Below, one piece after another: positions 7,195-52,604 of a stretch of DNA of 64,000 nt (positions are counted from its first letter, which is position 1; each line of letters starts with the position of its first letter). The notes beneath the pieces are model-generated. The model saw only the letters and a list, made by a program, of their open reading frames with translations. It was not told where the DNA came from and did not search any database. The DNA lies in assembly GCA_021203465.1 (NCBI GenBank), contig JAJQBC010000005.1, positions 7,866-71,865 of the forward strand, given 5' to 3'. A program made the position numbers and the translations under genes. The stretch is from Lachnospiraceae bacterium (GTDB lineage: Bacteria > Bacillota > Clostridia > Lachnospirales > Lachnospiraceae).

Positions 7195-7250
7195 TGCTTG
7201 TACTACAGTGTTCCCTGCGCTGCATGATTTCAAACTCATACAACGCATAT

Positions 7251-7279
7251 ATAATAACACCTTTTTCTGTGTGAGTCAA
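7251..7279 (-). promoter_or_regulatory. sigma-A-type promoter of the polysaccharide operon
   Basis: Minus strand reads TTGACT, a 17-nt spacer, then TATTAT. It lies about 400 nt upstream of the first glycosyltransferase ATG. Confidence 0.5.
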
Positions 7280-7393
7280 TTTTTTGTGCGTAGCTTTTTT
7301 TTACAGTTTTTTTGCCGATAAAACCTGTTTTTTCAATTGCGGATCAGCCCAGATTCAGCTCTTTAAACTCTCTTTGGATGTCGACTGGTGGCT

Positions 7394-7927
7394 CTAGCTG
7401 CTTCCGACTGTTTTCCGCACGATCTCCACACCCACCGTCGCGTCGATCACCTGACCAAACATCTCTACCTGAATCTTCGCCGTCCGCTTATGGCGATTGA
7501 TTTTTTTGATGCAGCCTTCCCGGCCCGCGAGCGGCCCCGAGGTGATCGTCACCCGGTCATTCTCGATAAAGCCTATCGACATGCCAACTACCTGCGTCTC
7601 CCCGCTGAAGCCACGGAGGAATTCGACTTCCGCCTCGCTTAAGGGCATGAAGCATTCCTTGTCCCCCAGAATTCGGGTCAGCTTTTTTACATTTCGAAGC
7701 GCCAGATACAGACTGTCGACCTGCTCCGTGACCACGAAAATATATCCCGGAAACAAAAGTTTTTTCTGCTTATGCCATTCTCCGGCGTACTTCCGCATTT
7801 CCTCATAATAGAAGACGAAGCATTTTCGAAGAAGCTCCTCCGGAATCTGCTTCCGGAGCATCTCCAGAGTATCTTCCTCAGTACCGGAAAGTACCTGTAT
7901 CACATACCACATTGCGTGTTTTTCCAC
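7394..7927 (-). CDS. NusG-family paralog (LoaP-like processive antiterminator)
   Basis: NGN-like N-terminus WYVIQVLSGTEEDTLEML...LFPGYIFV and a KOW motif GDRVTITSGPLAGREGCIKKI. The 177-aa length and the position at the head of a polysaccharide locus also fit. The start may be the GTG at 7927 or the ATG at 7912. Confidence 0.8.
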   Translation of the reverse strand: MEKHAMWYVIQVLSGTEEDTLEMLRKQIPEELLRKCFVFYYEEMRKYAGEWHKQKKLLFPGYIFVVTEQVDSLYLALRNVKKLTRILGDKECFMPLSEAEVEFLRGFSGETQVVGMSIGFIENDRVTITSGPLAGREGCIKKINRHKRTAKIQVEMFGQVIDATVGVEIVRKTVGSS

Positions 7928-8094
7928 ATTAATCTCCCACTTTCACACCACAAATCGTAAAGGAAAAAAAATTTATTTACGAAAACGACATTTTTTGACA
8001 TATATATCGTGGAAATTTTTGTCACTTTTGGTTAAAATTTCTGTATTGCCTGTTGATTGCAGGCAAAATACTATCTCGAGGGAGGTTAACCTCA

Positions 8095-11339: not shown

Positions 11340-11422
11340 CAGTTCAGAACGGCGTCGAAATGACGCGTAAGCGGCATATAGCCTTCGAAGAAGGCGGTCT
11401 CAAGGCCTGCTGTTCTGAACAG
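11340..11422 (+). repeat. copy 1 of an approximately 65-nt structured intergenic repeat (R element)
   Basis: Core ATGACGCGTAAGCGGCATATAGCCTTCGAAGAAGGCGGTCTCAAGGCCTGCTGTTCTGAACAG. Near-identical cores occur at 26475-26554 (opposite strand) and 45705-45765. It contains the GCCTTC-GAA-GAAGGC hairpin. Confidence 0.8.
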
Positions 11423-11447
11423 TTTACACAGAAAGAAGGCATACAGT

Positions 11448-13766: not shown

Positions 13767-14261
13767 CGCGGCCACCGCCGCAAAGCACCGGGTTTTGCAA
13801 ACGGGCGGGCAGGAGAGTGGCCTGTATGGCGAGAGCAGTCGCCACCTTCGGGATTTTCGTCATCTGCGGCTGCGAAACCCCGAATTGAGCCTCCGGGTCA
13901 AATGTCTCTCGTCAGACTGTCGAACGATAAGTCCTTTAGATGGACATCGAGGGCGATTTGTTACAGGAACTGTATATGGCCGGAAGCGACCAAAGACGGG
14001 TTCAAAACACTACAGAATTGTTTTGAACCCGTCATTCGAAAGGTCGCGAGGCCGTATGCGTAGTTCCTGTTAAAATCGCCATCTGGGAATCTAAAGGACT
14101 TATCGTGTGGCAGGCTGTGCTGAGACTTGCCCCGGAGGCTCATTGGTTTCTCGCTCGCAGATGATGAAAATCCATCGAAGCCGCCTCCAATGCTCTCGCC
14201 ATACAGGCCACTCCCCTACTCGCCCGATTCACAGGCTTAGCGCTTTGCGGCGATGGCCGCG
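13767..14261 (+). repeat. long rod-like imperfect palindrome, copy A (about 247-nt arms)
   Basis: Arm-to-arm complementarity can be traced by hand from the apex (GACGGGTTCAAAAC, an 11-nt loop, GTTTTGAACCCGTC at about 13996-14033) out to CGCGGCCACCGCC / GGCGATGGCCGCG. The central portion is about 90 percent identical to 44100-44470. Confidence 0.85.
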
Positions 14262-26474: not shown

Positions 26475-26554
26475 TGTAACTATTCAGAACAGCAGGCCTT
26501 GAGACCGCCTTCTTCGAAGGCTATGTGCCGCTTACGCGTCATATGACTGTTACA
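26475..26554 (-). repeat. copy 2 of the R element
   Basis: The reverse complement reads ATGACGCGTAAGCGGCACATAGCCTTCGAAGAAGGCGGTCTCAAGGCCTGCTGTTCTGAATAG, flanked by TGTAAC/GTTACA. It lies between ecfT and truA. Confidence 0.8.
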
Positions 26555-35700: not shown

Positions 35701-38700
35701 TTTTCCGCTCTCATTGGAATAGTAGAGATTGCGGTAGGCCGCCAGAATATCTTCCATATAATAGTAGCCGTGCCCCGCGATATAGACCAGACGGTTGACC
35801 TCTGAGAGTTCATAGTCGCTTCCGTATTTTCCCTTAAAAGGCTGGTTTTCCGCGATATAAGATTTCGTATACTGGTAACCGACGAAGCTATCCGACTCGT
35901 CCATAAGAGCGACGAGCGCGTTCTCCTTCACCAGCATGTTTCCCTCGTCCTCGCTCCAGGCCGCTGCGATCGTACCATCCTGTATAAGGCTCAGTTCCGA
36001 GAGGAGATAGACGGTGAAACCCGCACCCTCGAGCGCCGTGCCGGCTGTATTTCCGGAGGACGCGCTCTCCCCTCCGGTCGTCAACTTGCGGATCTGGAAA
36101 CCGGCCTTGATGACCTGCTGCTCCGACACGCCGTCCGTCTCATTCCTGCGGTAAATCTGCTCCGCCTCGACGAGCGTGCCCTCCTGCATCTCGTCCTGAT
36201 AGAGGAAGGAATAATGGTATTTCTGCGGATTTCCATCCCCATCCGTCGCCGCCAGATAGCCCGGCGCGAAGGAGAGCCAGTGTATTTCCGCACTCTCCTC
36301 GTCATTATTGTCCGTCGAGAAGAGGACGACTGAGCTGCGAATCTCCTCGACCAGATCATATTCTCCGAGGTACAGCCCGTTCATCTCGAATTCTCCGTCC
36401 GCGATCACAGCGCTCGCGACCTTCGCGCCCGCCTGCAGCGTCACGTCCTGCAGCGTCCAGGTGTCCGCATAGCCGTCCCCGTCCGTATCTATAAAGACCT
36501 GCTGTTCCTCGAGCACCGCAAACCAGCCGTTGTGCTTCGCGCCGCCGTACATGCCGTCCGGATGCCGGATGCCGCCGTAGGAAACGTTCTTCGCCTCGAC
36601 GCTCACATATCCGGCTTTGCTGTCCGTATAATCAAAATACAGCTTTCCCCCGCTGAGGTATGCATGCGGATAATCCTGATACGCATTCGTCCCCAAATCC
36701 GTAAAAGCAGAACCGTCGTCATCTCCATCATAAATAATGCGGTATCCGCCCGCGGCAATCGGCTGCGCCCAGAAAAGCTTTCCGTCCAGCGTGCCCTCCA
36801 GATACTGCACCTCAAAGCTGCTGTCCTCCGACACATAGAGCGAGTAGATGGCTCCGTCGAGCCCCGCGTCCCCGTGATCCGTTCCGGCCGCATAAGCCTC
36901 CGCGAGGTCGCCGTCCACATAGCGCTCCGCCTCCGCGTCCTGCTTTGAAAATTTCAGATAGCCATAGCCGCGTTCATCGATGAAAGAGTATTCCACCGCA
37001 TCGGTCACGCTCGCCTGTGTATGGTCGGTCCGCGCCGCCGCTTCCTGCGAGGCACCGTCACAGACGACCTCGCCCACCTGCAGGAAATCCCGGTCATGGA
37101 AGCCGCTCCTCACATTCAGCACAGCGGCCTCATCCCCCGCATAGGAATGATAATTGATCGCGATGTCCGTGTAGGTTCCATAATACGTGATGCGCGACGC
37201 GGAAGAGAGATTGTCGTCATAGCTGTCCGCATTGACCGTTGTCCCCACAAAGTGCAGCTGCACATCTGCGCTCTTCACCAGAGCGAAATACGTATCTGAC
37301 TTCTGCGAATCCCGGCTGATCAAAAGCCCGCTCTCCCCGCTCAGATACTGATTCCAATATCGATCCCAGAACACGTTCAGCACATCCTGCACGGCACTGC
37401 CCAGAGCGTAGCGCTGCAGTGCGATCATCTCCTGAAGGCCGAACTGTTCATAGGTAAGCGCGTCATAATCATCCAGAGTCCCCACATCGTTCGCATAGTA
37501 GGCGTTTTCATAGCCCTCATGACCGTCCGTCAGCATATAGGTGGCGTATTGGTTCGTATCCTCACAGAGATTCAGGTAATGCACGAGTTTCTCCGTGCTG
37601 GCCTGTTCACCTGTCCCGTCCCGGTCGCTGTAATTTCCCAGATAACCGTTTCGCTCCCCGTCCGCAGGAGCGCTCTTCTCCACGATACAGAAACGCCCCA
37701 GATTGGCCTGTGTGTAGTAGAGCGTTCCATAGCTGTCATAGCCGTAGCTCACGCCTGTATCCGTATCCGTCGCGGAGCTGAAATTTGTCCCACAGTACTG
37801 ATCCGTCACGGAAATCCGATGCACCGTGTACATACCGATCACCGTGTCCGGCCAGCCCATCTCCTTCGCGATATCCGCGGTTACACGCACAATCTCATAA
37901 TTTTTCTGTCCCCAGGTCGTGTAATCGTCCGGATCGGCCGCCAGACCGTAATCCCGCTCCGCGACCGTCAACTGCCCGGTTGAGACCGAGAAGGCGCTGT
38001 CGTAACGGTAGGTGCCATCCGCGAGAATCGTTCCCGTATAATAGTAAAGCGTCACGGAACCATCCGCGTCCACAGCGGCAGCCACAAAATACAGGCCGTT
38101 TCCCTCACCCGTGTAGGACACCCCATCATCGGAATACAGAACGATCCCTGTATCCTCCATGCTCTCATAGACAAAAACCGTGCCTCCGGAGCTGTACTCG
38201 ATGTGCGCGCCGTCATCCTGCGCGGTGTAGACACTCTCCGTCCCTTCCGTGTCAGTATATACGTACTGCCAGAGACCGCTCGCCGCATCGACTTCGTAAG
38301 AGATCGTCCCTCCGTCTGCGGTCGTATAGAGCATCGCACCGGCTCCCAATATCTCTGTATCACTGATCGCAATCTGGTTTTCCATCTCGGCCAGAAGCTG
38401 ATACACGCCTTTTCCCGTCTCCACCAGCTCTGTTGTTTCATAATACAGAGTATCCGCCAAGCTGAGATCCTGACTGCTGTCAATCGTGATCTCCAGCCGC
38501 GCCAGATAATCTCCGGCCGCCGTGGGCGTATAGGACAACGCATACGCGTAGGGCGTCGCCAGATTATCCACCAGCTTCGCCACATCCAAGTTCCAGCTTT
38601 CGTACTCGTGCCCGCTCTCATCCGTCACGGTCAGCTCAGCGGCCGCAATCAGCTCCGTCTGCAGCGCCGACCCCTTCTCCCGGATCAGACCGCTCAGCAG

Positions 38701-41109
38701 CATCGACGGATAGAGCGTCTTTTTCTGCGCAGTCGCCTGAGCCGTCCACTGATAATATTCATAAATTTCAAATTCTGTGTCATAAAGAATCTGCGCGCCG
38801 CTCTCCAGATCAGTCTTATTGATAAAAATCTGATTGTACCACGGCTCGTCCGTGACATTTGTGTTCGATGCCCCGGAATCGCTGTCATTCCTTCCGCCGA
38901 CTGTCATCGTCCCGCCGTTGGAGACGATTTCCGAGTAAGTTCCTATTGTCGTAGCGCCATTCACATCCCTGCGATATCCGGCCAGAGGCAGCGTGACCTC
39001 CGCAAGCGTCCGTCCATTTGAATCATTCGCGCTTCCGCGCGTATACTGGTCGAGCTCCGTGACCGTATAGCGGTAAGTGCGCGACATATAGGAATCATAC
39101 TGTTCCTCGAGCGTGCCCTGCGCGCTCTCCTTCGCCTGCGTCCATGCATCCTGCTGCTCTTCGTAAATCTCCTCAAGCTCTTCCGCCGTGAGTTCGACGG
39201 AATCTCCCATGTAGGACACAGCCAGCACGTCGCCGACGCTCAGGGTCGCCGCTGCCGCGAGCGCCTCCGCCCACAGCGATTCATAGGTATCCTGATCGGT
39301 CTCCTCCCCGGGTTCCTTCATGTACTGGCTGTAGGATTCCCGGAAGCTGTGTTCATGCACAAAGCTCGTGTACGCATAACCGTTCGCGTCCGTCATGAGC
39401 TCGGTCTGATGGTCGCCGCCCGACGGCTCGACATCCTCATCCATATAGGGCACGGAAATTCCATAGTTGCCGGCCGAATCGGTATCTTCGCTCTCCACCA
39501 CCTGAAAACGCACGCCCTCCAGAAGCTCATTGGTGATAATGCTCTCCTTCGTGATCTCCACACAGTACTGCGCGGAGGCCTTCTTTTCCAGATCATAATT
39601 TTCAATATAGGGAATGAGCAGCTCACCCGCCACCGCGGATACCGGGGATGTCCCGATGCTCCAGGTAATAATCCACTGGGCGTTCGTCTGCGCCGGGCAG
39701 ACCCAGAAGCAAAGCTCCGCATGGCTGCCCGGATAATAATCGATGCCGCTCACATTGGTGAAGTCGTCGAAATCCAGAGTACCGTCCATATAATGATTGA
39801 TCGCATTGGAAAATGTACTCAGCGCGCCGTAGACGTAGCTCGCGTCGCCGCCGTAAATTTTTCCGGCCGCCTCGCTGATTCCGCCGTCGTTCCAGGCCAC
39901 GTCGATATCGAAATAGACGCTGTCGTCGGGCATATTGTTGATAATATACCAGATCGCGAGCTGCATCGCCGCGTAGTCGTGGGACTGCTGCTGCGTCGTC
40001 TTCAGGTAACAGTTCACCACACACTTGATCAGATTGTACTGATAACTGCTGAGCGCTGTCCCGTTCGGCGCAATGATCGATGAATAATCCACCTGCTCGT
40101 AATGCCAGCCTGTCCTGTACGAGCCGCCATACAGGGCGCAGAATGCCGTGTGGCGCGTTCCACTGTTGTCTTTTGCATAGAGCTTCACGACCTTATCGTG
40201 AGCCCTACTGCTTCCCAGTGAGGAAATTACACCAAGCGCGCTCCCGCCCAGAGAACCGATCCCGGCGGATGTCAGAGACGACGGAACGTCATTCTCGCCG
40301 GACAGCAGCAAGACCCCGTAGAGATCCACGTACTCGCTCCGCCCCAGCGCCTCATAGACCCAGTCCGGGAGTTCCCGTCCACTCAGGTATCTGCCGGTAA
40401 TATAAGAAAAATTATATTCCGCCTCCGCCATGCTGCGCAGAGTTTCTATCGTGAATCCCGAGAAAATCGTCCCGCGGAAGAAATGCGCCAGATCCATCCC
40501 TTCTTCCGCCAACTCGATGATCTCCTCCACATCGTCGGTGTAAATTTCCGGGATTTCATTTCCATCCTCATCTACGGCGTAGACAAAATTCCCGCTGCAG
40601 GCCGGATCTCCGTAGCCATAATTGTCGTATGGAGTGATTTCGTCCTGCTCTGCCTGTTCGACTGCTTCCTCCGTGGCGACAACGATTTCCACGGCTTCAC
40701 TCCCGTCGTCGTCCGTCTCCTCTTCCTCCGTAATCTCTGTCTCGTCACCGCCTTCATCGGAAATCCCCATGAGCTGCTCTTCCGCATCATTTTCCTCTGC
40801 CGAAGAGGCCTCGCCATCGGAGTCCTCCTGAATCCGTCCGTCCGTTTCCTGATCTGCCCTGTCCGGATTCTCCGTATCTGACTCTTCCGTTTCCGGCTCC
40901 TGCGCATCGAAATCCGACTCCTCTTCGCCTGATTCCCCGTCGCTCTGTCCCTCCGTGTTCTGACTCTCCGTGCACGGTTCTTCTGTGCTCTCTCCCAACG
41001 ACGCCGTGTAGGAATCATCCGCGCGCGATATCATACCCGCTGACGGAGCGGAGCAAAACAGAACCGTGGCCAGAAGCAGGCACAGGCAGCGCTCTGCTGT
41101 TTTTTTCAT
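32743..41109 (-). CDS. giant surface adhesin (2788 aa from MKKTAERC) with a thioester-like domain and many CnaB/SpaA-type repeats
   Basis: Signal peptide MKKTAERCLCLLLATVLFCSAPSAG, a roughly 130-aa poly-acidic region, FCALYGG plus AMQLAIWYI (thioester-domain Cys and Gln motifs), and repeated GxYxLxExxAPxGY-type motifs (YRLEELNAPDGY, YEVREIAAPYGF, YYIQELTPPDGY). It ends at a TGA in the middle of a domain. Confidence 0.85.
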   Translation of the reverse strand: MKKTAERCLCLLLATVLFCSAPSAGMISRADDSYTASLGESTEEPCTESQNTEGQSDGESGEEESDFDAQEPETEESDTENPDRADQETDGRIQEDSDGEASSAEENDAEEQLMGISDEGGDETEITEEEETDDDGSEAVEIVVATEEAVEQAEQDEITPYDNYGYGDPACSGNFVYAVDEDGNEIPEIYTDDVEEIIELAEEGMDLAHFFRGTIFSGFTIETLRSMAEAEYNFSYITGRYLSGRELPDWVYEALGRSEYVDLYGVLLLSGENDVPSSLTSAGIGSLGGSALGVISSLGSSRAHDKVVKLYAKDNSGTRHTAFCALYGGSYRTGWHYEQVDYSSIIAPNGTALSSYQYNLIKCVVNCYLKTTQQQSHDYAAMQLAIWYIINNMPDDSVYFDIDVAWNDGGISEAAGKIYGGDASYVYGALSTFSNAINHYMDGTLDFDDFTNVSGIDYYPGSHAELCFWVCPAQTNAQWIITWSIGTSPVSAVAGELLIPYIENYDLEKKASAQYCVEITKESIITNELLEGVRFQVVESEDTDSAGNYGISVPYMDEDVEPSGGDHQTELMTDANGYAYTSFVHEHSFRESYSQYMKEPGEETDQDTYESLWAEALAAAATLSVGDVLAVSYMGDSVELTAEELEEIYEEQQDAWTQAKESAQGTLEEQYDSYMSRTYRYTVTELDQYTRGSANDSNGRTLAEVTLPLAGYRRDVNGATTIGTYSEIVSNGGTMTVGGRNDSDSGASNTNVTDEPWYNQIFINKTDLESGAQILYDTEFEIYEYYQWTAQATAQKKTLYPSMLLSGLIREKGSALQTELIAAAELTVTDESGHEYESWNLDVAKLVDNLATPYAYALSYTPTAAGDYLARLEITIDSSQDLSLADTLYYETTELVETGKGVYQLLAEMENQIAISDTEILGAGAMLYTTADGGTISYEVDAASGLWQYVYTDTEGTESVYTAQDDGAHIEYSSGGTVFVYESMEDTGIVLYSDDGVSYTGEGNGLYFVAAAVDADGSVTLYYYTGTILADGTYRYDSAFSVSTGQLTVAERDYGLAADPDDYTTWGQKNYEIVRVTADIAKEMGWPDTVIGMYTVHRISVTDQYCGTNFSSATDTDTGVSYGYDSYGTLYYTQANLGRFCIVEKSAPADGERNGYLGNYSDRDGTGEQASTEKLVHYLNLCEDTNQYATYMLTDGHEGYENAYYANDVGTLDDYDALTYEQFGLQEMIALQRYALGSAVQDVLNVFWDRYWNQYLSGESGLLISRDSQKSDTYFALVKSADVQLHFVGTTVNADSYDDNLSSASRITYYGTYTDIAINYHSYAGDEAAVLNVRSGFHDRDFLQVGEVVCDGASQEAAARTDHTQASVTDAVEYSFIDERGYGYLKFSKQDAEAERYVDGDLAEAYAAGTDHGDAGLDGAIYSLYVSEDSSFEVQYLEGTLDGKLFWAQPIAAGGYRIIYDGDDDGSAFTDLGTNAYQDYPHAYLSGGKLYFDYTDSKAGYVSVEAKNVSYGGIRHPDGMYGGAKHNGWFAVLEEQQVFIDTDGDGYADTWTLQDVTLQAGAKVASAVIADGEFEMNGLYLGEYDLVEEIRSSVVLFSTDNNDEESAEIHWLSFAPGYLAATDGDGNPQKYHYSFLYQDEMQEGTLVEAEQIYRRNETDGVSEQQVIKAGFQIRKLTTGGESASSGNTAGTALEGAGFTVYLLSELSLIQDGTIAAAWSEDEGNMLVKENALVALMDESDSFVGYQYTKSYIAENQPFKGKYGSDYELSEVNRLVYIAGHGYYYMEDILAAYRNLYYSNESGKWDFSGEEQAVARMYEDDETMVAAINADYTYKANRLNSGSPCEWYGVNGISEGWVATGVENEYRLSEIFTNHYGNLRSPELPWGAYLVVETTTPEDVFTVDPLFVTVSDSSTSENRAKSVAQTDASIVASLILVKRDAQSGQTVTQSGISFRIWDYQNNQYVSKYLSGPDGELTMIAQRVFSTDESGRLNAVASLEAGTYRLEELNAPDGYYNLYLDSGYGTVDFEVTTDRRYQASGIVSSGNLDYLYIGETMYDDEVLGKLSILKTGEVLTDYDEDESDFVYEERPLADAVYEITAAEDIPTQDGSGWWFREGDVVATVTTGEEGEYVSFEPNYRTAENTGGGSYDYTYYYGSGTSFTSSKEYSGEQFSSSGGVANYWIAGRMSELDQALYGIPAYTDETVYPNTYYKEQTQQILRHYYREGASEEPVVTDYVTRLDAESGLASSEAGILTETAEGYRLTWTSQQLYSGAYLTQNGEDTVLTLADGSGITLEPCTDVYQVTESHVDGWAQGDLVECTESGYRISHTTEVQPGVSGGAQTDAAVDLGYTRVMSYRSAAIVEQGDGSFILYDETGNPIVTMESGLYETSSGALVVRTSSGWSVTETRCEEISDNRYVQAELSLQGGTLTVKNETWTLLWDAASQIFRTTGGNTVELAADGASVTVTVAGIQTSYQVYELTLEYTLHYATAEPIVRVENDGTLGTVSVYLPLGSYEVREIAAPYGFLLSAQTQTVELTYVDQTTEVVFDAQEDFLNFYNQRIKPWSTSEEEQRKLGVGVYKADAGSGALLLGARFGLYTADDIYNVDGELLVEAGALLACATTDADGFANFAVNIALMSKYQDEDAAEAELIYQASVSGDTVERSIDGNTALNTGNYYIQELTPPDGYLMDDTVYPVSFAYEDEYTLYIPVYAEHENEPTAVTLTKMDLTGEEEVSGATISVYRILDSSLLDKDGQISHAQDNLALVDTWVSTEEAHTVEGLWLSNSE

Positions 41110-41214
41110 TTTTAATGCCCTTTCCAGCACAAAAAGTGTGCAAACTACCTTCACCCGCAGCACCTGCCTCTGCGGGCGATCTCTATGCATTTTCATTTGG
41201 GGAATTCACCGATG

Positions 41215-41435
41215 AAACATCGGCGTTCGATTTTTTTGGACGTTTTTATTCTAATACGGCAAGAAGATTTTGTCAAATGAAATATGAAAAGCCCTTAACT
41301 CGCGAATACGCAAAGAAAAGATGGGTTCAAAACACTTTTTGTATTGTTTTGAACCCATCTTTGGTCAGTCCCTGCCGTATGCAGTTCCTGTAACAAATCG
41401 CCCTCGACATCCATCTGTCGACTTTCTTTCTGACT
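41215..41435 (-). repeat. degenerate, inverted copy C of the long palindrome family
   Basis: The minus strand reads GATGGATGTCGAGGGCGATTTGTTACAGGAACTGCATACGGCAGGGACTGACCAAAGATGGGTTCAAAACAATACAAAAAGTGTTTTGAACCCATC, matching the left arm and apex of copies A and B. The other arm is only patchily recognisable (GCCGTAT..., AAAATCG...). Confidence 0.7.
41248..41276 (-). promoter_or_regulatory. candidate promoter of the adhesin operon, embedded in the decayed arm of copy C
   Basis: Minus strand reads TTGACA, a 17-nt spacer, then TAGAAT. The 5' UTR of about 130 nt contains the CCCGCAG...CTGCGGG hairpin. Confidence 0.45.
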
Positions 41436-44002: not shown

Positions 44003-44020
44003 GAAAAACTGTAAGCACTC

Positions 44021-44550
44021 ACGGCCCGGTCCCCCGCATCCGGCACCCGCCGCCGCAACAGGCAATTTGCTTCGAGCGCGCAGGCAGCACGCCCTCCTGT
44101 GGGGAGAAGTAGTCGCCGCCTTCGGAATTTTCGTCATCTGCGGCTGCGAAACCCTGAACTGAGCCTCCGGGCCAAATGTCGCCCGGCAGGCTGTCGCCCG
44201 ATAAGTCCTTTTGATGGACATCGAGGGCGATTTGTTACAAGAACTGCATACGGCTGGAAGCGACCAAAGACGGGTTCAAAACACTACAGAATTGTTTTGA
44301 ACCCGTCATTCGTAAGGTCGCGAAGCCGTATGCATAGTTCTTGTTAAAATCGCCATCTGGGAATTAAAAGGACTTATCAGGTGGCAGACTGTGCCACGAC
44401 TTGTCCCGGAGGCTCATCTGTTTCTCGCTCGCAGATGATGAAAATTCATCGAAGCCGTCTCCCATACTTCTCCCCACAGGAGGGTGTGCCGCCTGCGCGC
44501 TCATTCCAAACGTTGCAGCGGCGGGTGTCGGATGCGGGGAAACGGGCTGT
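44021..44550 (+). repeat. long rod-like imperfect palindrome, copy B (about 265-nt arms)
   Basis: It has the same apex and inner arms as copy A. The outer arms have different sequence but are again self-complementary: CCTCCTGTGGGGAGAAGTA / TACTTCTCCCCACAGGAGG, GAGCGCGCAGGC / GCCTGCGCGCTC, CCCCGCATCCG / CGGATGCGGGG. Confidence 0.85.
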
Positions 44551-44563
44551 GAAATGCGGCGCA

Positions 44564-45571
44564 TTACAGCTTGTCGATCGGCGTATTCAGGATGCGCTCC
44601 GTCTCCTCGGCCTTTTCCTTCTCCCGGCGGCGCTTGCTGCGGATGTTCAGGAAGACGAGCACTGCGACGACGATGATCACGACAGCGGCCAGAATATAGG
44701 GCAGCCGGGACGCGAGCGTCGGCGTCGTGCTCATGATACGGTCTGCGGTCTTCGAGAACACTTGGGAGAAATACTCTTCATCGCTCAGATCGCTGTAATA
44801 ATAGGCGTCCACATAGTCGAGCAGGATCTCGCAGGCCTCCGAATCCATGACCGTCTGCGCGTTCGTTCCGACGATATAGTAAATGCTGTAATCGCTCGAA
44901 CTCCACTCGACAAAGACGAGCAGTACCCCAGCCTCGTTATCGCCTGCCAGTTCCGTATACTTATCGTCACAATAAGCTTCGATCTCGTCGTTCGTCGCGG
45001 AACGGCTACCGTTCACGTTGTCAGTGATCACGAGATAGGGCTGCACGCCGGTCTCCTTATAGAAGGTCTCCATACCGGAGAGCGTCGTGCTCTTATTGAG
45101 AATCCAGTCCAGCTCGTCGTCGATGCAGTCGCTGTCAAACGAAGCATAGGGTTGGATTGCCTCGCGCTCTACCGTACTCGTCGTAATATCCGAGGTCGAC
45201 GAGGAAGCGAAGCCTCTGGTCGCCGAACGCATCATGGAAAAAAGCACCATAACCACAAGGATACACACTATCAGCATGGAAGTACCGCAGCCGGCTCCGC
45301 GTCTTCCGTAGCCGCCATAGCCCCAGCCGCCGAACCAGGATCTCCGCGGTGGCCTCGGTGGGCGCGGACCGCCCGTACCTCCCATGCCCGGTCCAAAACC
45401 GCCGCCCGGCGCACCGTAACTGCCCCCGCCACGGTTCCGGCTGCCGGAACCCATCGAGCCGCCACGGCTCGAACCGCTCGAGCTCCTGCCGCCAAAGCTG
45501 CGGCCTCCTCCTGAACTGTGTCCTCCGCTGCTGCGGCCTCCGCCGCCGCCTCCTGCACCGCCTCTGCCCAT
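44564..45571 (-). CDS. membrane protein with a Gly/Arg-rich N-terminal tail and a TPM-like domain between two TM segments
   Basis: The first roughly 95 aa are almost only G/S/R/P. TM1 follows (MLIVCILVVMVLFSMM), then an approximately 190-aa domain resembling TPM (METFYKETGVQPYLVITDNV...AGVLLVFVEW...IYYIVG), then TM2 and a basic tail. Confidence 0.55.
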   Translation of the reverse strand: MGRGGAGGGGGGRSSGGHSSGGGRSFGGRSSSGSSRGGSMGSGSRNRGGGSYGAPGGGFGPGMGGTGGPRPPRPPRRSWFGGWGYGGYGRRGAGCGTSMLIVCILVVMVLFSMMRSATRGFASSSTSDITTSTVEREAIQPYASFDSDCIDDELDWILNKSTTLSGMETFYKETGVQPYLVITDNVNGSRSATNDEIEAYCDDKYTELAGDNEAGVLLVFVEWSSSDYSIYYIVGTNAQTVMDSEACEILLDYVDAYYYSDLSDEEYFSQVFSKTADRIMSTTPTLASRLPYILAAVVIIVVAVLVFLNIRSKRRREKEKAEETERILNTPIDKL

Positions 45572-45704
45572 ATTTTTCAGCCTCCTCTTTTTTCTTTAAC
45601 AGTTCCGAGCAGTAATGAAATAAAAAACAGACTGTGCAGGTTTACCTGCTAAAGGCTGTATTTTTATTTCGGGATGGGCGGAACGCCCATCAAGCCTCAG
45701 ACAT

Positions 45705-45765
45705 ATGACGCGCAAGCGGCATATAGCCTTCGAAGAAGGCGGTCTGTGGCCTGCTGCTCTAATAG
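45705..45765 (+). repeat. copy 3 of the R element
   Basis: ATGACGCGCAAGCGGCATATAGCCTTCGAAGAAGGCGGTCTGTGGCCTGCTGCTCTAATAG, between the pspA stop and the TPM-like gene. Confidence 0.8.
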
Positions 45766-45796
45766 TTGCTTTGCACCAATTCAGAACAAGTCTGAT

Positions 45797-46465
45797 TTAC
45801 TTTATTCCGAACTCTTTCTTAAGCGCCTCAAGTGCCTCGTCCGTCTCCTCTGACTGCGACTCATACTTCTCCCGCAGCTCATCCAGGCCGTCGCCCTGCC
45901 GCCGGTTCAGCTCGGCTTCCGCCTGCGCCTTGTCGAGCCGCCGGTTCGCCATGTCCTCGTACTGCTCGAAGGCCGCGGAAGCGCTGCGCTTCGGCGTCCC
46001 TGCACTGTTCAGACGCTCCGTGGCATCGGCCATGGACATCGTCGCGCGGATGCGGCTCTTCCTCGCCTCCATGTCCTGAATATCCGTAGCGAGCTTATTG
46101 TAGAGTTCGCGCATCTTCTCTGTATTCTGCTGCGCCATCGCAAGCGACTTTTCATCCGCCGCGAGCTGCTCCCGGATCTTCGCCTCGCTCGCAAGGAACT
46201 TTCGCGCATCCGCCTCATTGCCCGCCCGCAGCGCGGCTCCTGCCAGCCCATGTTCCCGCTCGGCGCGCTCCTTCGTATCGTCGCGGCGGCTCTTCGCGCT
46301 CCGCTCGGCGGCCATGACCTTTGCGGTCTCCAGCTTCACCTCAGCCAGATCCTCCCTGGCCTGCACAAGCGCCTCGTCGATCGTCCTTTCCGGGTCCGCA
46401 CGCTTATCCAGCCGGTCGTTCACATTCGCCCTCATAATGTCAGAAAAACGGTTTAAAATTCCCAT
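45797..46465 (-). CDS. pspA: PspA/IM30 family protein
   Basis: MGILNRFSDIMRANVNDRLDKRADPERTIDEALVQAREDLAEVK and a long coiled-coil. The ATG at 46465 follows GAGGAGG. Confidence 0.85.
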   Translation of the reverse strand: MGILNRFSDIMRANVNDRLDKRADPERTIDEALVQAREDLAEVKLETAKVMAAERSAKSRRDDTKERAEREHGLAGAALRAGNEADARKFLASEAKIREQLAADEKSLAMAQQNTEKMRELYNKLATDIQDMEARKSRIRATMSMADATERLNSAGTPKRSASAAFEQYEDMANRRLDKAQAEAELNRRQGDGLDELREKYESQSEETDEALEALKKEFGIK

Positions 46466-46482
46466 CTGTCCTACCTCCTCTA

Positions 46483-47190
46483 TCAGGCCTGTTTCTGCCT
46501 CCTGCGGTACTCCTGCTCCCATTGGAGCAGCTTTTTCTGCGCATTTCCATAGTCGACGCGCCTCTGCTCCTGCCCGCGCGGCGGTCCTGCGACCAGCGAC
46601 CTGGCGAGCTCCGCCTGACGCTCCGTGTCCTCATCCGGCGCATAATCATATGCCGTTTCAAAGCACTCAGCCGCCTGTTCAAAAAGGAACTGCTGCGCGT
46701 AGCATACGCCCAGATTGTGCCAGATGGCACTGTAAAATGCCATCCCGAGCCGATTGTTCTGATGCATCTTCAGGATATGGTGGTACTCGTCCATCGCCGC
46801 CCAGTCGCTGCCGCCGTCGAGCAGCTCATCCGCCCGCAGCTTCAACCGTTCCTGCTCCTGCATCGTCCCAAGCGAACGGATCTTCTCCTTCAGCTCCGTC
46901 ATCTCCTGACCCGTATACAGGTCGGAAGCGCCAACCACCTGAATCACCAGATTGCTGAGGTTCGCGTGAGCGTCGATACCGCTTTTAATCCTGTGAGCCA
47001 GCTCCTTCTCCTCGAGTTCATCGCCAATCCATTGGCAGAGCCGTTCATCGAAGAATCTTCGCTCGATCAAGCAGACATTGTGGTACAGATACCAGGCCAG
47101 CTCCTCGATACTATAAAGTCCAGGCCCCGTCTGCCCCACCGACAGCGGCGTCCTTGCCCGCCTGCCTCGGCAGATCATCACCAGTCCCAT
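46483..47190 (-). CDS. hypothetical helical (TPR-like?) protein
   Basis: 235-aa ORF. The credible sequence begins around LYSIEELAWYLYHNVCL. The start is uncertain because the first roughly 27 codons overlap the upstream gene. The C-terminal half resembles helical repeats (AFYSAIWHNLGVCYAQQFLFEQAAECFETAY). Confidence 0.4.
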   Translation of the reverse strand: MGLVMICRGRRARTPLSVGQTGPGLYSIEELAWYLYHNVCLIERRFFDERLCQWIGDELEEKELAHRIKSGIDAHANLSNLVIQVVGASDLYTGQEMTELKEKIRSLGTMQEQERLKLRADELLDGGSDWAAMDEYHHILKMHQNNRLGMAFYSAIWHNLGVCYAQQFLFEQAAECFETAYDYAPDEDTERQAELARSLVAGPPRGQEQRRVDYGNAQKKLLQWEQEYRRRQKQA

Positions 47191-48277
47191 CGTACTCCTC
47201 CTCTTCCTCCAGCGAAAATGACTCCATCCAGTACAGATCCGACGCCGGATACAACTCTCCGAAACCCAGATCTGACACCTTCACCTCACACTGCCTCGGG
47301 CCGGAAAAATGAACCTCAATCAGAAGCCGCGTCGTCCGCTCTGGCCTGACAGGCAGATCGGTCAGCTGCATCCCGAAGTGCAACTCCTTTCCTCCCATCA
47401 TCGGCTGAAACACGAATTCCAGCACCGGCTCATCCAGCAGGATCATCTCACGCCATTCCTGCACGTCGTACCAGTTCTCCCCGGCGCTCACAAGCATATG
47501 TACCTGCTCCTGCGACCCGCGTCTGCAGCGGATACCCATATTGTAAAATAAGGTCTGTTCATTCAAGAAAAGATAAGCCGGCTTTGCACCCTGCATCCCG
47601 GCCGCCATGCACGCGCCCCGCGCATAGACCTGCTCCGCGAGGAACACCCGCCTGTGCGCACAGATCACTTCCCTGCTCTTTTTGTACTCCCGCGCATCGA
47701 AATCGGTTCCTGTCAGAAACACTGCCGACACGGGCTTTCCCTTAAAACAGGTCTCCGCCATCTGGGCAAGGCGCTCATCCCGCCCCCCGTCCAGCATATT
47801 GCCGACATACCAGTATTCCGGCTCCGATGTCTGCACGAGCATCGGCGTCGTCCTGCGGCTCACCTCCAACATCTGCGCACGCACTTCATCGGCGCCAAAC
47901 TCCAGCAGACAGACCCGGTGCTGCCAGATATCATTACTCTGATGCATCACAAAGTGGACAAGGCTCTCTGCCTCCGAGATCACCTGAAGCTGCTCCTTCA
48001 CGAAGCCCGCCTCGCAGGCCTCCTGCTCGAACTGGCGGATACTCTCCTCCTCGAGATCCGGCAGGACAATCACGCCCCGGATGTCCTCTTTCTTTCCAAA
48101 GCGCTTCAACGCGGAGAGGATTTTTAAGAAACAGGCGCCCTTTCCCTGCTGCCCCTGAAAATCCAGCGGCAGCAATTCCGGTTCCTTCATACGGGCGCTC
48201 TGATAACAGACCTGCGGACATTCCTCCCGAAAATCAATCCCCGCGATCAGTAACTCCCGTCCGTTCGTCATCCTCAT
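47111..48277 (-). CDS. hypothetical protein with a possibly degenerate actin/Hsp70-fold N-terminus
   Basis: 388 aa. LLIAGIDFREECPQVCY loosely recalls the phosphate-1 motif of the ASKHA fold. There is no Walker motif and no TM segment. I cannot assign a family. Confidence 0.4.
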   Translation of the reverse strand: MRMTNGRELLIAGIDFREECPQVCYQSARMKEPELLPLDFQGQQGKGACFLKILSALKRFGKKEDIRGVIVLPDLEEESIRQFEQEACEAGFVKEQLQVISEAESLVHFVMHQSNDIWQHRVCLLEFGADEVRAQMLEVSRRTTPMLVQTSEPEYWYVGNMLDGGRDERLAQMAETCFKGKPVSAVFLTGTDFDAREYKKSREVICAHRRVFLAEQVYARGACMAAGMQGAKPAYLFLNEQTLFYNMGIRCRRGSQEQVHMLVSAGENWYDVQEWREMILLDEPVLEFVFQPMMGGKELHFGMQLTDLPVRPERTTRLLIEVHFSGPRQCEVKVSDLGFGELYPASDLYWMESFSLEEEEEYDGTGDDLPRQAGKDAAVGGADGAWTL

Positions 48278-48291
48278 CCAGTGTCACCCTC

Positions 48292-51200
48292 TTATCTTCT
48301 GCTAAACTGCTCCGCCACAAGATCGGACAGCTCCTCATAGTCACGCATCATCCTGCGAAGATTCCGCTCATGCCGATAATCATACTCTCTCTGCATACGG
48401 CAGAGTCTCTCATAACGGCTGAGGCCGTCCATATGCTCTTCCCGGTTCTCAATCGTTCTCGACATCGTTGAGTTCTCGGTGCCATCCGGCAGCTCCTCCG
48501 TGAAAAACCAGGTCAGCTGCTCTCCGTAGAACAGTGTGAAAGACTTCGTAAAAATGCCTTGATACACCGGGAAAATCTGCTCTGTTATATAGTCGAAGGT
48601 CTTCTTCCCGTGATATTCCAGTACATAGTGCAGTACAACCCGATGTTTCGGATCGCCCCGGTACTCCACAATCGTACGGTCGTCCGGGCGACCGCCCTCC
48701 TCCATATACGGCTCAAGCTTACTGAGAAAGGCGAAGGGCTTTCTGCCAAGTCCTTCCTCCGCCAGAAGCCGCCGCGCGAGGCGCTTCTGCGCTCCACTCA
48801 AAAGCAAAAGAACTGAAAGTTGCTTCAGATAAGAAAGACACGCAACCTCCGCCAGATGGTCATCCCAAATCAGATGATGCTCCAAGCTGTCAAACAAGCC
48901 CTCTGGCATGCCGCGCTCCTTCACAAAATCCAGCCAGCCCGTATAGTTCAGCCAGGCACTGATAAGGACCGGATCTCCGCCCCGTCCGTCCAGAGAGAGG
49001 AATACCGGGAACACCTCCTCAATGTACTGTTCCGTGAACAGCGCCTGCACAATGAGCTGTTCCTCCAACTGCGGGAAAATCAGTCCAAACTGTTCCCCTG
49101 CCCTCCAAACGGCCAGCAGCTCCTGCATGCTGCCGACATACTCCTCCGCGAGCAGCGCGACAATCTGCTCCGTGTAAACACCCTTCTCAAAAATCAGACG
49201 CGCCCAAGGCCGCAGCCTGCCATGCTGCATTTCACCCTCCGCGAGAAGACGCTGCAGCAATCGGAGCAACAGCTTCGGATCCACTTCCTGACAACCGGTT
49301 CGGTTCAGCGTCGTCCATGCCTCCCAGTCCCGTCCCAGCAAAATCAGAATCTCAATACAGGACGCCTGCCCCTTTCGGTTCAGCGCATCCACATTTTCCA
49401 TAGGAAGGTATTCCGCCAACTTCTCCGTACGGCCTGATTTCCGCTCGTATTCCAGAAGCTCCAGCTTTAACTGCTGCTCGTAAGACTCATCGAGCTTTCC
49501 GCTGCGCAGCAGTCTCTTCGCCGTCTCCACGTTTTCGGAATTCAGACGATGCTTTCCTCTGCCGTCAAGCAGATAGAGATTCAGCCCCGTGTGGTCTTCC
49601 AGACGTATCGTACACTCCTGCAGAAAGCGCGGCTCAATCAGCAGACGCTTCAGATCGTAGGATACCGTCTGCCGGTAGCGCCGTCCCTGCTCGTCGATCA
49701 AAATGATCTGCGCCGACGGCGTATAGATTGGCACGAAGGCGCAGCCGCCCGACAACGGCGTCACAAAGCGCTCCTTCAGCTGCTCATAGCGCACCTCCAC
49801 CTGACGGATACGCTTTTCCTGACAGCTCAGCTTTCGCATAAACAGCAAGTCAGCCAGCGCCTCGAGCATATCCTTCTCCAGCGTCTCAAGCAGCAGACAG
49901 TGCCCATATAACCAGGCCAGAGATTCATTCAGCCTGCGTCCTTTGAGCTGCTCCAGCAGAAACTCCTGTAGCCTACGGCGGTGTCCCTCCATCTCCGGCG
50001 AATCCAGATCGCCATACTTGGCCAAATTACAGTAAAAAGCCGCCTTCTGCCTGCCGGTCAGCGTATTATGATAGTCAAAATACAAGATTACCTGCCGCGG
50101 CAGCAGCTCCGGATAATTCTCAGGCAGGGAGTACATGAAATATTCATAAAGATTTGTAATCTTCGCGTCGAGCTCTACGCCCTTCTGATACCAGACAAAG
50201 GCCTCCGCATCTGTTCGGTGTCCGCGAATATGGATCGCGCAGACCGCGCCGACAGTCTCCCTGCAGGGGTTTGTCTGGTAGCAGCCCTTCAGAAGCCTGG
50301 CGGCCAGAGGAGACCATCGCTTCAGGCGGGACGCCTGCTTCGCGATGAGCAGCGCCGTCTCGGCGTTCAAAAGCCCGCGGGAACTTGCCCAGGCGCAGGT
50401 CTGCAGGGCAAAGGCATCGAGCCTCCCGAACAGCGCCATATCATTTTTCAGATAAGACCAGGCAGCCTGATAAATAAGACGGTTGTGTGTCCCCGCCCGG
50501 AACTGCCGCTCCAACAGTTTATAACAGGTCCGCGGATTCTCCTTCAGCTTCGGGTCAAGCTCCAGCAGGAAGAGCACAATCATCCACAGCTTCGGATTCT
50601 TCTGATACAGTCTCTGGAGCTGCGGAATCGCCGCGGCAGTCGTCTCCGCATTATCCCGGTAGAGACAGTTCACATAGAGAAACAAGGCCCGCGTCACCGC
50701 ATCGCGCTGCTGGAAGAGGCGCGTCCGCTCGTATTTTTTCAGAATCCAGCCTGCCTCTTCACCCCTGCTCTCCTTCAACAGCACCCAGGCGTCGAGCAGC
50801 GGGGCAATCGGGGAATTCGGCGTCTCCTTTCGCAAAAGCTCCACCTGCCCGCGCAGCTGCGAGGCCGCGTCCACAGTCGCGAGCACGCCCCGCCGCTCTT
50901 TTTCCGCCAGACGCAGGATCTGTGCCAGAACTGACTCGCAAACGCGCCGACTGCGCCACTCCTCGCTGCGACCCGGCCCCTTCCGAATCTCCCCGGGAGG
51001 CACCTCCTCCTGTTCCGGCTCCGGCAGCGGAATCTCCTCCGCCTCTTGTCCCCGGGCAGAAAGCTCGACCTCTATCCGTACCGGCAAACGATACTCTCCG
51101 GCATCCGATTCGATATAAACGCTGCCCTCCAGGCTCTCGCCCTCCTTGAGCCCCTTTGCGTCGTACTCGTATTCAATCCTCGCAGCGCGCCCAAAAAAGG

Positions 51201-51402
51201 AGTCCTGCTTCAACTTAAGACCCGGAACTCTGGTACAAAGTACACCCCGAACCCTGCGATCATCACAGGAACTCACGACAAAACTGCCCGACAGAAAGCC
51301 TCTGGCCTTCGTCCGCAGCAGCAGCTCCTCCGGCTCCATATGCAGCTCCGGCTGTGAGTAGCTAAATATTCCGTTGGAAAAATCGATGATCTTACCTTTC
51401 AT
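48292..51402 (-). CDS. large (1036 aa) hypothetical protein: N-terminal beta-rich module plus a long alpha-helical repeat body
   Basis: It is a long uninterrupted ORF with normal codon texture. The N-terminal 120 aa look beta-sandwich-like (GSFVVSSCDDRRVRGVLC...GSVYIESDAGEYRLPVRIEV). The rest is Leu/Arg/Glu-rich and helical. No catalytic motif was recognised. Confidence 0.5.
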   Translation of the reverse strand: MKGKIIDFSNGIFSYSQPELHMEPEELLLRTKARGFLSGSFVVSSCDDRRVRGVLCTRVPGLKLKQDSFFGRAARIEYEYDAKGLKEGESLEGSVYIESDAGEYRLPVRIEVELSARGQEAEEIPLPEPEQEEVPPGEIRKGPGRSEEWRSRRVCESVLAQILRLAEKERRGVLATVDAASQLRGQVELLRKETPNSPIAPLLDAWVLLKESRGEEAGWILKKYERTRLFQQRDAVTRALFLYVNCLYRDNAETTAAAIPQLQRLYQKNPKLWMIVLFLLELDPKLKENPRTCYKLLERQFRAGTHNRLIYQAAWSYLKNDMALFGRLDAFALQTCAWASSRGLLNAETALLIAKQASRLKRWSPLAARLLKGCYQTNPCRETVGAVCAIHIRGHRTDAEAFVWYQKGVELDAKITNLYEYFMYSLPENYPELLPRQVILYFDYHNTLTGRQKAAFYCNLAKYGDLDSPEMEGHRRRLQEFLLEQLKGRRLNESLAWLYGHCLLLETLEKDMLEALADLLFMRKLSCQEKRIRQVEVRYEQLKERFVTPLSGGCAFVPIYTPSAQIILIDEQGRRYRQTVSYDLKRLLIEPRFLQECTIRLEDHTGLNLYLLDGRGKHRLNSENVETAKRLLRSGKLDESYEQQLKLELLEYERKSGRTEKLAEYLPMENVDALNRKGQASCIEILILLGRDWEAWTTLNRTGCQEVDPKLLLRLLQRLLAEGEMQHGRLRPWARLIFEKGVYTEQIVALLAEEYVGSMQELLAVWRAGEQFGLIFPQLEEQLIVQALFTEQYIEEVFPVFLSLDGRGGDPVLISAWLNYTGWLDFVKERGMPEGLFDSLEHHLIWDDHLAEVACLSYLKQLSVLLLLSGAQKRLARRLLAEEGLGRKPFAFLSKLEPYMEEGGRPDDRTIVEYRGDPKHRVVLHYVLEYHGKKTFDYITEQIFPVYQGIFTKSFTLFYGEQLTWFFTEELPDGTENSTMSRTIENREEHMDGLSRYERLCRMQREYDYRHERNLRRMMRDYEELSDLVAEQFSRR

Positions 51403-51412
51403 GGATACCCCG

Positions 51413-51441
51413 TTGCATTTTTTTCACGTTTACACTATTAT
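51413..51441 (+). promoter_or_regulatory. candidate promoter of the aminotransferase gene
   Basis: TTGCAT, a 17-nt spacer, then TATTAT, about 50 nt upstream of the ATG at 51492. Confidence 0.4.
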
Positions 51442-51443
51442 TT

Positions 51444-51473
51444 ATTATATCACCATCCAATAGCGTCACGCAA
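51444..51473 (-). promoter_or_regulatory. candidate promoter of the PspA-associated cluster
   Basis: Minus strand reads TTGCGT, an 18-nt spacer, then TGATATAAT (extended -10). Confidence 0.4.
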
Positions 51474-51491
51474 CTGACAGGAGAAGAAAAA

Positions 51492-52604
51492 ATGACAGAA
51501 CAGATCGATGCGAGAGAACACTTCCACGGAAGTGACCTTGAAAAAATAGAAAAGTGTTTTGGAATCCCGAAGGAGAAAATCACGGGATTCGGCGCAAATG
51601 TAAACCCGCTCGGACTCTCCCCGCTGATGCGGGAGGGACTGCTGCAACACATCGACGCGGTGACGAGCTACCCCGATCCGGCGTACACGCAGCTGCGCGG
51701 ACATATTGCGGCCTACACGGGCTGCCGCGCGGAGCAGATTCTCGTCGGGAACGGCTGCACCGAGCTGATCTCCCTCTTCGTCCAGATCCGGCAGCCGAAA
51801 AAGGCGCTGATCGTCTCCCCGACCTACTCGGAATATGAACGCGAGATCCGCCTGCACGGCGGTGAGGTCGTCTACTACGCGCTGCGGGAGGCGGACGACT
51901 TCCAGCTGAATGTGGATGATTTTACACGGACACTTTCAGGAGGCTACGACCTGTGCGTCATCTGCAACCCGAACAACCCGACCTCCACGGCCACTGAGCC
52001 GGAGGACATGCGCCGTATTCTCTCCAGCTGCTCTGAGCTCGGCATCTTTGTCATGATCGACGAGACCTATGCGGAATTCGCACCTGAGGAAGGCGGCGTG
52101 AGCTGCGTCGGCCTGCTGGATGAATTCCATAACTTCGCGATCCTGCGCGGCGTCTCAAAATTCTTCGCTGCTCCGGGTCTGCGCCTCGGCTACTCCATGA
52201 CCGGCGATCTCGCGCTTCTGAAAAAAATCCAGGAGGATAAAAACCCCTGGACTTTGAACAGCCTGGCCGAGGTGGCCGGCTCCTATATGTTCCGCGATAC
52301 CGCTTATATTGAGCAAACACGGAATCTCATCTCCTCCGAACGGGAGCGCATTTACCGCGAACTGCTCGGCTGGAAGCACGTGAAGGTCTACCGCCCGCAC
52401 GCGAATTTCATCCTCGTGCGCATCCTGCGGGAGGGCGTCACTTCCTACGATGTCTTTCTCCACGCGATCCGGCGCGGGCTCATGCTCCGCGACTGCTCCA
52501 GCTTCCCCGGCCTCGAGGACGGCAGCTTCTTCCGTTTCTGCTTCATGATGCCGGAGAAAAATACGGAGCTGCTCGCCTGCCTGCATGAGATTCTGGAAGA
52601 CTGA
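51492..52604 (+). CDS. PLP-dependent class I/II aminotransferase-fold enzyme, CobD (threonine-phosphate decarboxylase)/HisC-like
   Basis: HFHGSDL...GFGANVNPLG at the N-terminus (CobD-like), NPNNPT, and RGVSKFFAAPGLRLGY (PLP lysine). Confidence 0.8.
   Translation: MTEQIDAREHFHGSDLEKIEKCFGIPKEKITGFGANVNPLGLSPLMREGLLQHIDAVTSYPDPAYTQLRGHIAAYTGCRAEQILVGNGCTELISLFVQIRQPKKALIVSPTYSEYEREIRLHGGEVVYYALREADDFQLNVDDFTRTLSGGYDLCVICNPNNPTSTATEPEDMRRILSSCSELGIFVMIDETYAEFAPEEGGVSCVGLLDEFHNFAILRGVSKFFAAPGLRLGYSMTGDLALLKKIQEDKNPWTLNSLAEVAGSYMFRDTAYIEQTRNLISSERERIYRELLGWKHVKVYRPHANFILVRILREGVTSYDVFLHAIRRGLMLRDCSSFPGLEDGSFFRFCFMMPEKNTELLACLHEILED

Follow-up and report, generated by a model that had tools for sequence, protein, structure and literature searches.

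A DUF5717–DUF5716–TPR gene trio with an inserted PspA–TPM-like pair in a Lachnospiraceae genome

A stretch of 64,000 nucleotides (nt) from a Lachnospiraceae bacterium (GenBank assembly GCA_021203465.1, contig JAJQBC010000005.1, positions 7,866 to 71,865 of the forward strand), here called the window, carries a tight cluster of five minus-strand genes, one of which encodes a PspA/IM30 protein. A prediction made earlier from the letters of the window alone proposed that PspA and three upstream proteins, none of which it could place in a family, belong to one Psp/ESCRT-III-like system. Our results indicate, with a probability that we put at about three in four, that the cluster is instead a composite of two independent modules: a conserved trio of genes for DUF5717, DUF5716 and a TPR protein, and an inserted pair of genes for PspA and a TPM-like membrane protein. 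The three upstream proteins are not without a family, as Pfam gives DUF5717_N and DUF5717 for the first, DUF5716_C for the second and TPR for the third, with functions unknown. The claim that their genes form an undescribed module holds good. The folds of the trio are known, and the variant built on them is undescribed; we found no paper describing it, DUF5716 or DUF5717, and the comparative-genomics paper on PSP (phage-shock-protein) systems mentions neither Hsp70, DnaK nor Clostridia.

Conservation of the trio and insertion of the PspA–TPM pair

Relatives of DUF5716 were sought by a pattern scan covering one genome per species, and at least 536 genomes were found to encode one. Almost all of these genomes are labelled Lachnospiraceae, and the few labels of Prevotella, Alistipes or Thermoguttaceae probably come from bins with contaminating Lachnospiraceae contigs. 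The 80 loci that matched the query with the best scores, rather than a random sample, were kept with 10-kb flanks, and profiles of the window proteins were run against their open reading frames (ORFs). In 77 of the 80 the three genes adjoin one another in the same order; the exceptions are two contig ends and one inserted gene. DUF5717 lies directly upstream of DUF5716 in 79 loci, the remaining one being a contig end, and the TPR gene lies directly downstream of DUF5716 in 78, with one contig end and the gene inserted in locus L027 as exceptions.

The idea of a single Psp/ESCRT-III-like system is not supported, as it fails the test of synteny with pspA that had been set for it in advance. PspA and TPM-like genes stand beside the trio in five genomes only (loci L006-L010), whose DUF5716 is 88-94% identical to that of the window, and a PspA profile used at E<=0.1 found no PspA within 10 kb of the trio in the other 75. 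In the next clade, at 51-65% identity, about 20 loci have the same flanks as the window, in the order PrsA-like gene, divergent aminotransferase gene, trio, and genes for the binding protein, the permease and the ATPase of an amino-acid ATP-binding cassette (ABC) transporter, with the binding-protein gene about 100-130 nt after the TPR gene. Since the TPR gene is followed there by the same transporter genes, PspA and its TPM-like partner represent an insertion of about 2 kb, and this insertion took place only on the branch leading to the species group of the window. In the ancestor of that group, the block was placed behind the TPR gene and ahead of the transporter genes. The trio itself is an operon that Lachnospiraceae inherit vertically, and its promoter appears to be of housekeeping type. 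That its place in the chromosome is fixed speaks for a core function in the cell, and against a mobile or defence function.

The inserted pair is of a known, YdjF/YdjH-like type. PspA matches PF04012 with 91 bits against a cut-off of 33.9, over profile positions 1-217 of 220, and aligns end to end with TIGR02977 at a score below the equivalog cut-off. Its ORF spans 45797-46522, and the conserved start MGILNRF lies at 46465, preceded by a GGAGG ribosome-binding site. The TPM membership of its partner is partly secured. The TPM domain (PF04536) gives a weak match to the window protein, of 20.5 bits against a cut-off of 22.1, and is matched by 19 of the 33 members of the TPM-like family at E<=0.01 (best 1e-6); a profile of the family compared with the PDB returned low-complexity noise only and no solved TPM structure. 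The protein, for which 479 homologues were found at E<=0.001, consists of a Gly/Ser/Arg-rich N-terminus, a transmembrane (TM) segment at about 97-113, a divergent TPM-like domain at about 130-285 and a second TM segment at about 291-311, and it has a conserved C-terminal motif, ETERILNTP.

It was suggested in the original prediction that this arrangement resembles the ydj genes of Bacillus, a comparison that has support in the literature, where the TPM-domain protein YdjH is named as the conserved partner of PspA (PMC11237479). As in the pspA (ydjF)-ydjGHI cluster of Bacillus subtilis, the PspA gene adjoins a gene for a TPM-type membrane protein with a low-complexity segment. There are also differences from the Bacillus cluster: none of the five proteins matches band-7/flotillin (YdjI) or the zinc ribbon (YdjG), ABC-transporter genes follow downstream, the divergent TPM domain scores below the Pfam cut-off, and the Gly-rich segment is N-terminal. 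PspA comes first here, and the order is reversed in a Dehalobacter-like locus (L089). Of the classical Psp and Lia systems, neither PspB, PspC, PspF, LiaF nor LiaRS turned up in the five cluster proteins, which were the only part of the window scanned for them; a trace match of PspB to a TM segment (E 0.023) was treated as noise.

The pair also occurs in the absence of the trio. All four of the TPM-like homologues that were looked up (P0201, P0213, P0295 and P0198; 45-57% identity) are adjoined by PspA, and their contexts are mutually unrelated and contain no DUF5716 or DUF5717. The pair is found between a glycosyltransferase gene and a UbiA-family gene (L086, L087), next to primase-like and SSB genes (L088), in reversed order beside a LiaRS-like two-component system (L089), and by split topoisomerase II genes and genes for GIY-YIG and HNH homing endonucleases, a thymidine kinase and an amidase (L090). 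The last of these is the closest outgroup pair, with 52% identity in PspA and 57% in the partner; it occupies positions 5323-7083 of a 63-kb ENA contig (k141_426166) on which all neighbours match phage protein families. Given that the closest outgroup pair stands on a phage-like contig, the pair has possibly moved with the help of phages. The context as such suggests a large phage that carries a PspA module.

Another gene follows the TPR gene in 38 loci, which include 36 of the 80 genome loci (e.g. L004, 12157-13374) and belong mostly to Roseburia, Agathobacter or Lachnobacterium. The product of this fourth gene has about 390-405 amino acids (aa), with two TM segments between two coiled coils, and has no match in Pfam, NCBIfam or the PDB. 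The window holds no copy of the gene, and it is absent from the wider clade of the window. In locus L027 (11061-16901), the gene inserted between DUF5716 and the TPR gene encodes a secreted acidic Big_2 protein of 1946 aa. It is similar in style to an acidic ORF of 2817 aa with a signal peptide, which lies in the window about 3.4 kb downstream of the cluster (32743-41196).

It could be proposed that the five genes cooperate in this one lineage, the PspA–TPM pair having been recruited as a membrane arm for the Hsp70-like complex in replacement of the fourth gene, to give an envelope-stress system. The pair occupies the exact place that the gene for the two-TM protein has in the 38 other loci, its junction with the trio favours co-transcription, and the giant Big_2 protein acquired by another lineage fits a tendency of the additions to be envelope-related. 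We nevertheless regard such cooperation as unlikely. In about 35 species that carry the trio, PspA and the fourth gene are both missing from its surroundings, which argues that the trio needs neither, and the pair is self-sufficient in its four other contexts. Moreover, the association is limited to one shallow clade, profile comparison detects no similarity of the fourth-gene product to PspA or to the TPM-like protein, and a structured repeat already splits pspA from its partner gene in the window strain.

DUF5716 as an Hsp70 derivative, and its two neighbours

DUF5716 is a derivative of Hsp70, with a reduced core, a linker, a β domain and degenerate ATPase motifs. The window protein matches DUF5716_C at E 2e-82 (277 bits, above the gathering cut-off). 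A profile of 69 homologues compared with PDB sequences matched DnaK chains at E 5e-6 in two segments, the first running from phosphate loop 1 through the VITVPAYF region and the second covering the end of the β substrate-binding domain, where LTDLPxRPxxTTRL...DLGFGE of DUF5716 is aligned with LTGIPPAPRGVPQIEV...KDLGTG of DnaK. The AlphaFold2 model has a predicted local distance difference test score (pLDDT) of 89 and a predicted template-modelling score (pTM) of 0.82, and in a Foldseek search of the PDB its top 44 matches were all Hsp70 chains spanning both domains (DnaK at E 1e-12), followed by minimal actin-fold proteins such as YeaZ. The profile match to DnaK and the Foldseek result together bear out an earlier impression that the N-terminal LLIAGIDFREE recalls the phosphate loop of Hsp70. 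Comparison of the DUF5716 profile with E. coli DnaK gave a weak alignment (probability 18%, E 0.0014), which is in line with HMMER and Foldseek without being independent proof.

The order of the Hsp70 domains is kept in DUF5716: a nucleotide-binding core (about 1-227), a hydrophobic interdomain linker (about 230-240) and a β-sandwich substrate-binding domain (about 241-356), after which comes an acidic tail (357-388). Common to DnaK and DUF5716 are GID at loop 1, the GAC/GAA helix where the core ends and LPxRP...DLGxG at the end of the β domain. By our own reading of the sequences, RGACMAAG is the counterpart of the terminal GAAVQGG helix of the nucleotide-binding domain, and AYLFLNEQTLFYNMGI that of the VLLLDVTPLSLGIE linker. 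Unlike in DnaK, where the core has about 380 aa, that of DUF5716 has about 227 and is shorter by about 150; secondary structure and alignments indicate that it lacks a counterpart of lobe IIB and keeps that of lobe IB in reduced form only. An α lid is missing, since the chain stops about 30 residues past the β domain. DUF5716 has also lost the Gly-rich phosphate loops. The Hsp70 ATPase signatures DxGTT (loop 1) and DxGGGT (loop 2) are absent across the family, which has GID followed by variable residues at loop 1 (GID-FREE in the window protein versus GIDLGTT) and EF-x-x at loop 2 (EFGADE versus DLGGGT).

An exhaustive search placed 2032 clusters at 50% identity in the DUF5716 family. Most members have 410-440 aa, and the 388-aa protein of the window is therefore a derived short form; it is without about 45 aa of the lobe-IB region that are present in the longer forms. 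In the clade near the window, DUF5716 ends in an acidic tail of the form ...LEEEEE..DGTG(D/Y)DL. The window and a few relatives have lost the stop codon at this point, and the protein continues for 19 more residues into the overlap with the TPR gene (47111-47190).

These features also bear on the possibility that the trio is an ATP-dependent Hsp70 chaperone, in which the TPR protein would be a Hop/CHIP-like co-chaperone acting on the acidic tail and DUF5717 an activator or a client. The retained Hsp70 fold with its linker and β substrate-binding domain would suit such a chaperone, as would the conservation of some catalytic-site equivalents (D15, E104 and D167) and the fusion of the TPR partner to DUF5716 in some lineages. 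The near-clade tail recalls the EEVD motif, but it is absent in most of the family and is not C-terminal in the window. The loss of the GTT of loop 1 and of the DxGGGT of loop 2 throughout the family, the short core and the missing lid all speak against an ATP-dependent chaperone; furthermore, the operon encodes no J-domain or GrpE-like protein, and no J-protein or nucleotide-exchange partner is encoded nearby, unlike for DnaK. We therefore consider this explanation decidedly improbable, and favour a trio in which the Hsp70-derived subunit has a structural part. Ssz1, of the yeast ribosome-associated complex, offers a parallel, being a degenerate Hsp70 that is a permanent subunit of a stable complex and not a cycling chaperone; its structures (7x3k_B, 6sr6_C and 5mb9) are among the Foldseek matches of DUF5716, which we likewise propose to be a structural subunit. 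Ssz1 has a full-size nucleotide-binding domain, binds ATP and has a J-protein as partner, whereas the partners of DUF5716 are a TPR protein and a giant solenoid.

The TPR protein matches TPR_2 with 27.7 bits against a cut-off of 27, and TPR_2 is found in 33 of 34 orthologues. Two or three TPR motifs follow a conserved N-terminal domain of about 100 aa, for which no relative was detected, the matches in the PDB being confined to the TPR part. The start of the protein, MGLVMIC, is conserved in the 34 orthologues. At least five representative clusters (P0383, P0391, P0392, P0428 and P0451) contain DUF5716 and the TPR protein as a single chain of 687-765 aa; two of these fusions were confirmed with the TPR-protein profile (P0391 at E 2e-41 and P0451 at E 4e-29), and the further three were recognised from the motif of the N-terminal domain. 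That they exist speaks strongly for a physical cooperation of the two proteins. In pairing a TPR protein with an Hsp70-type protein, and in the acidic tail of the near-clade DUF5716, the trio is reminiscent of the eukaryotic Hsp70 co-chaperones Hop, CHIP and SGT, and the weak profile matches of the TPR protein, which are generic TPR matches, include the TPR domains of SGT and FKBP51. The trio differs from these systems in that the acidic tail is not conserved in the whole family, the TPR protein has its additional N-terminal domain, and the pairing is obligate, that is, linked by the operon and sometimes by fusion.

Pfam assigns the 1036-aa protein to DUF5717_N (E 3e-159, 532 bits) and DUF5717 (E 5e-62, 210 bits), both above the cut-offs. 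Its AlphaFold2 model (pLDDT 86, pTM 0.57) has a β-sandwich at about 20-112, a disordered linker at 113-146, a TPR-like solenoid at 147-520, a β module at 522-586, a second solenoid at 591-899, a β-sandwich at 909-985 and a helical hairpin at the C-terminus. The Foldseek check that had been proposed for the unassigned proteins returned for DUF5717 only generic TPR/HAT scaffolds (IFT-A, Ctr9, Ski3 and Naa15), at E about 1e-6 and with low template-modelling scores (TM-scores), and the DUF5717 profile found no match among PDB sequences. The two long helical-repeat arrays resemble those assembly platforms at the level of the repeats only, with TM-scores of 0.1-0.2, and DUF5717 differs from them in adding three β-rich modules and in being confined to bacteria.

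Proposed function and its limits

We propose that DUF5716, rather than being a foldase driven by ATP, acts as a nucleotide-independent peptide clamp or adaptor. Its direct binding partner would be the TPR protein, as suggested by the fusion of the two into one polypeptide in several lineages, and the solenoid of DUF5717 could be the platform that carries both, the three making up a scaffold or holdase complex that would be stable and cytoplasmic. The fourth-gene product may, in many genera, tether this complex to the inner face of the membrane. In the inserted module, PspA would stabilise the membrane as an ESCRT-III-like effector, as it does elsewhere, and the TPM-like protein with its two TM segments would serve it as anchor or sensor in the membrane, with the cytoplasmic C-terminal ETERILNTP motif as a candidate for the contact between them.

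The transcription of the cluster as one unit, which the original prediction had postulated, is likely in this strain: pspA and the TPR gene are 17 nt apart, and no terminator was found between them. The PspA–TPM pair would then be read from the promoter of the trio, such read-through being probable because the pair lies so closely behind the TPR gene.

Several points weigh against a strict separation into two modules, or against the role that we propose for the trio. The modules are probably co-expressed across the 17-nt junction, which may mean functional coupling in this lineage. All three independent additions at the 3' end of the operon (the fourth gene, PspA–TPM and the Big_2 protein) are membrane or envelope proteins, a weak hint of a shared envelope theme. 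We infer the complex, its location and the absence of nucleotide binding, and the structure models are those of monomers; the pTM of 0.57 leaves the domain arrangement of DUF5717 uncertain. No enzymatic domain is present in any protein of the trio, which gives no lead to its role. Finally, the genome scan relied on a pattern and was capped at 80 loci, which were selected by score.

An anti-phage defence or conflict system, with the proximity of PspA as the sign of a defence island, was rejected as highly improbable. The trio joins a large repeat protein to an ATPase-like fold and to a TPR protein without known function, and the closest outgroup pair stands on a phage-like contig, which might be taken to point that way; but PADLOC gave nothing for four of the proteins and for PspA only coiled-coil-type matches (LmuB and JetC) that are noise, the trio keeps one chromosomal position, within housekeeping flanks, throughout a bacterial family, domains of nucleases, proteases or other effectors are missing, and the promoter is of housekeeping type.

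With regard to what the trio does, it is conceivable that, together with the fourth gene, it constitutes a machine specific to Lachnospiraceae, in which an Hsp70 reduced to a nucleotide-independent peptide clamp, firmly tied to the TPR protein and the giant solenoid, works at the cytoplasmic face of the membrane in the biogenesis of the envelope or of large surface proteins. We offer this only as a tentative suggestion. If true, it would explain the repeated capture of envelope genes at the 3' end of the operon, namely those for PspA–TPM, the Big_2 protein and the fourth-gene product.

The PspA side of the cluster is ordinary, and the trio is the less expected part and the one worth following. 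It occurs in at least 536 species-level genomes, and nearly all of these carry the label of Lachnospiraceae, a dominant family among gut bacteria. The trio is a bacterial parallel to the Hsp70-TPR partnerships of eukaryotes and to structural pseudo-Hsp70s such as Ssz1, and it bears on the question of whether the substrate-binding domain of an Hsp70 is able to function in the absence of a nucleotide cycle. Its study would reveal what three widespread families, so far without a known function, do.

Control region, spacer and dispersed repeats

The features of the cluster are collected in Table 1. The order and spacing of the five minus-strand genes are as first described, and the same is true of the promoter, which reads on the minus strand TTGCGT (51473-51468), 18 nt and TG-n-TATAAT (51452-51444). 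Many of the orthologous loci have similar extended -10 boxes, of housekeeping type, upstream of DUF5717. A consensus scan for promoters and terminators gave no minus-strand site, and the number of sites it found did not exceed that in shuffled sequence. The CobD/HisC-like aminotransferase gene (51492-52604 in the window) is the divergent neighbour of DUF5717 in 59 of 84 loci.

Table 1. Coordinates of the gene cluster and its control elements, in positions of the window
Feature	Position	Strand	Length	Remarks
DUF5717	48292..51402	minus	1036 aa	First gene of the trio
DUF5716	47111..48277	minus	388 aa	14-nt gap after DUF5717
TPR protein	46483..47190	minus	235 aa	80-nt overlap with DUF5716
PspA/IM30	45797..46465	minus	222 aa	17-nt gap after the TPR gene; first gene of the inserted pair
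TPM-like membrane partner of PspA	44564..45571	minus	335 aa	Follows the 225-nt spacer
Spacer between pspA and the TPM-like gene	45572..45796	minus		Strain-specific repeat of about 190 nt; terminator-like hairpins
Shared control region	51403..51491		89 nt	Separates DUF5717 from the divergent CobD/HisC-like aminotransferase gene; extended -10 promoter for the cluster

A conserved motif upstream of DUF5717, AAAAAGCAAC with ATTATA, was considered as a regulatory RNA or an operator and was rejected, as it reads as a promoter on the opposite strand, with TTGCAT, 16-17 nt and a TATAAT/TATTAT-like box. It is probably the promoter of the divergent aminotransferase gene. Rfam gave no match in the region upstream of DUF5717.

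The 225-nt spacer between pspA and the TPM-like gene contains the dispersed repeat that had been noticed in it before, with further copies at 26478-26549 and 11360-11424. Its predicted fold has a z-score of -5.1 against shuffled sequence, there is a U-run at its end, and Rfam has no match for it. In close relatives this spacer is 20-31 nt long and has no repeat (L008-L010), and it measures 90 nt in L007. The structured repeat may now separate the expression of pspA from that of its partner gene in this strain.

The stretch from the TPM-like gene to the gene for the ABC-transporter binding protein holds an inverted repeat with nested structure, about 530 nt long (44019-44552). Its core (44100-44476) is 89% identical to 13827-14201, its centre resembles 41317-41415, and the whole looks like a dispersed palindromic element similar to a miniature inverted-repeat transposable element (MITE). 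Loci L007, L009 and L010 have a short spacer at this place. At the start of the window, positions 1-8000 have a G+C content of 37-43%, compared with about 56% elsewhere.

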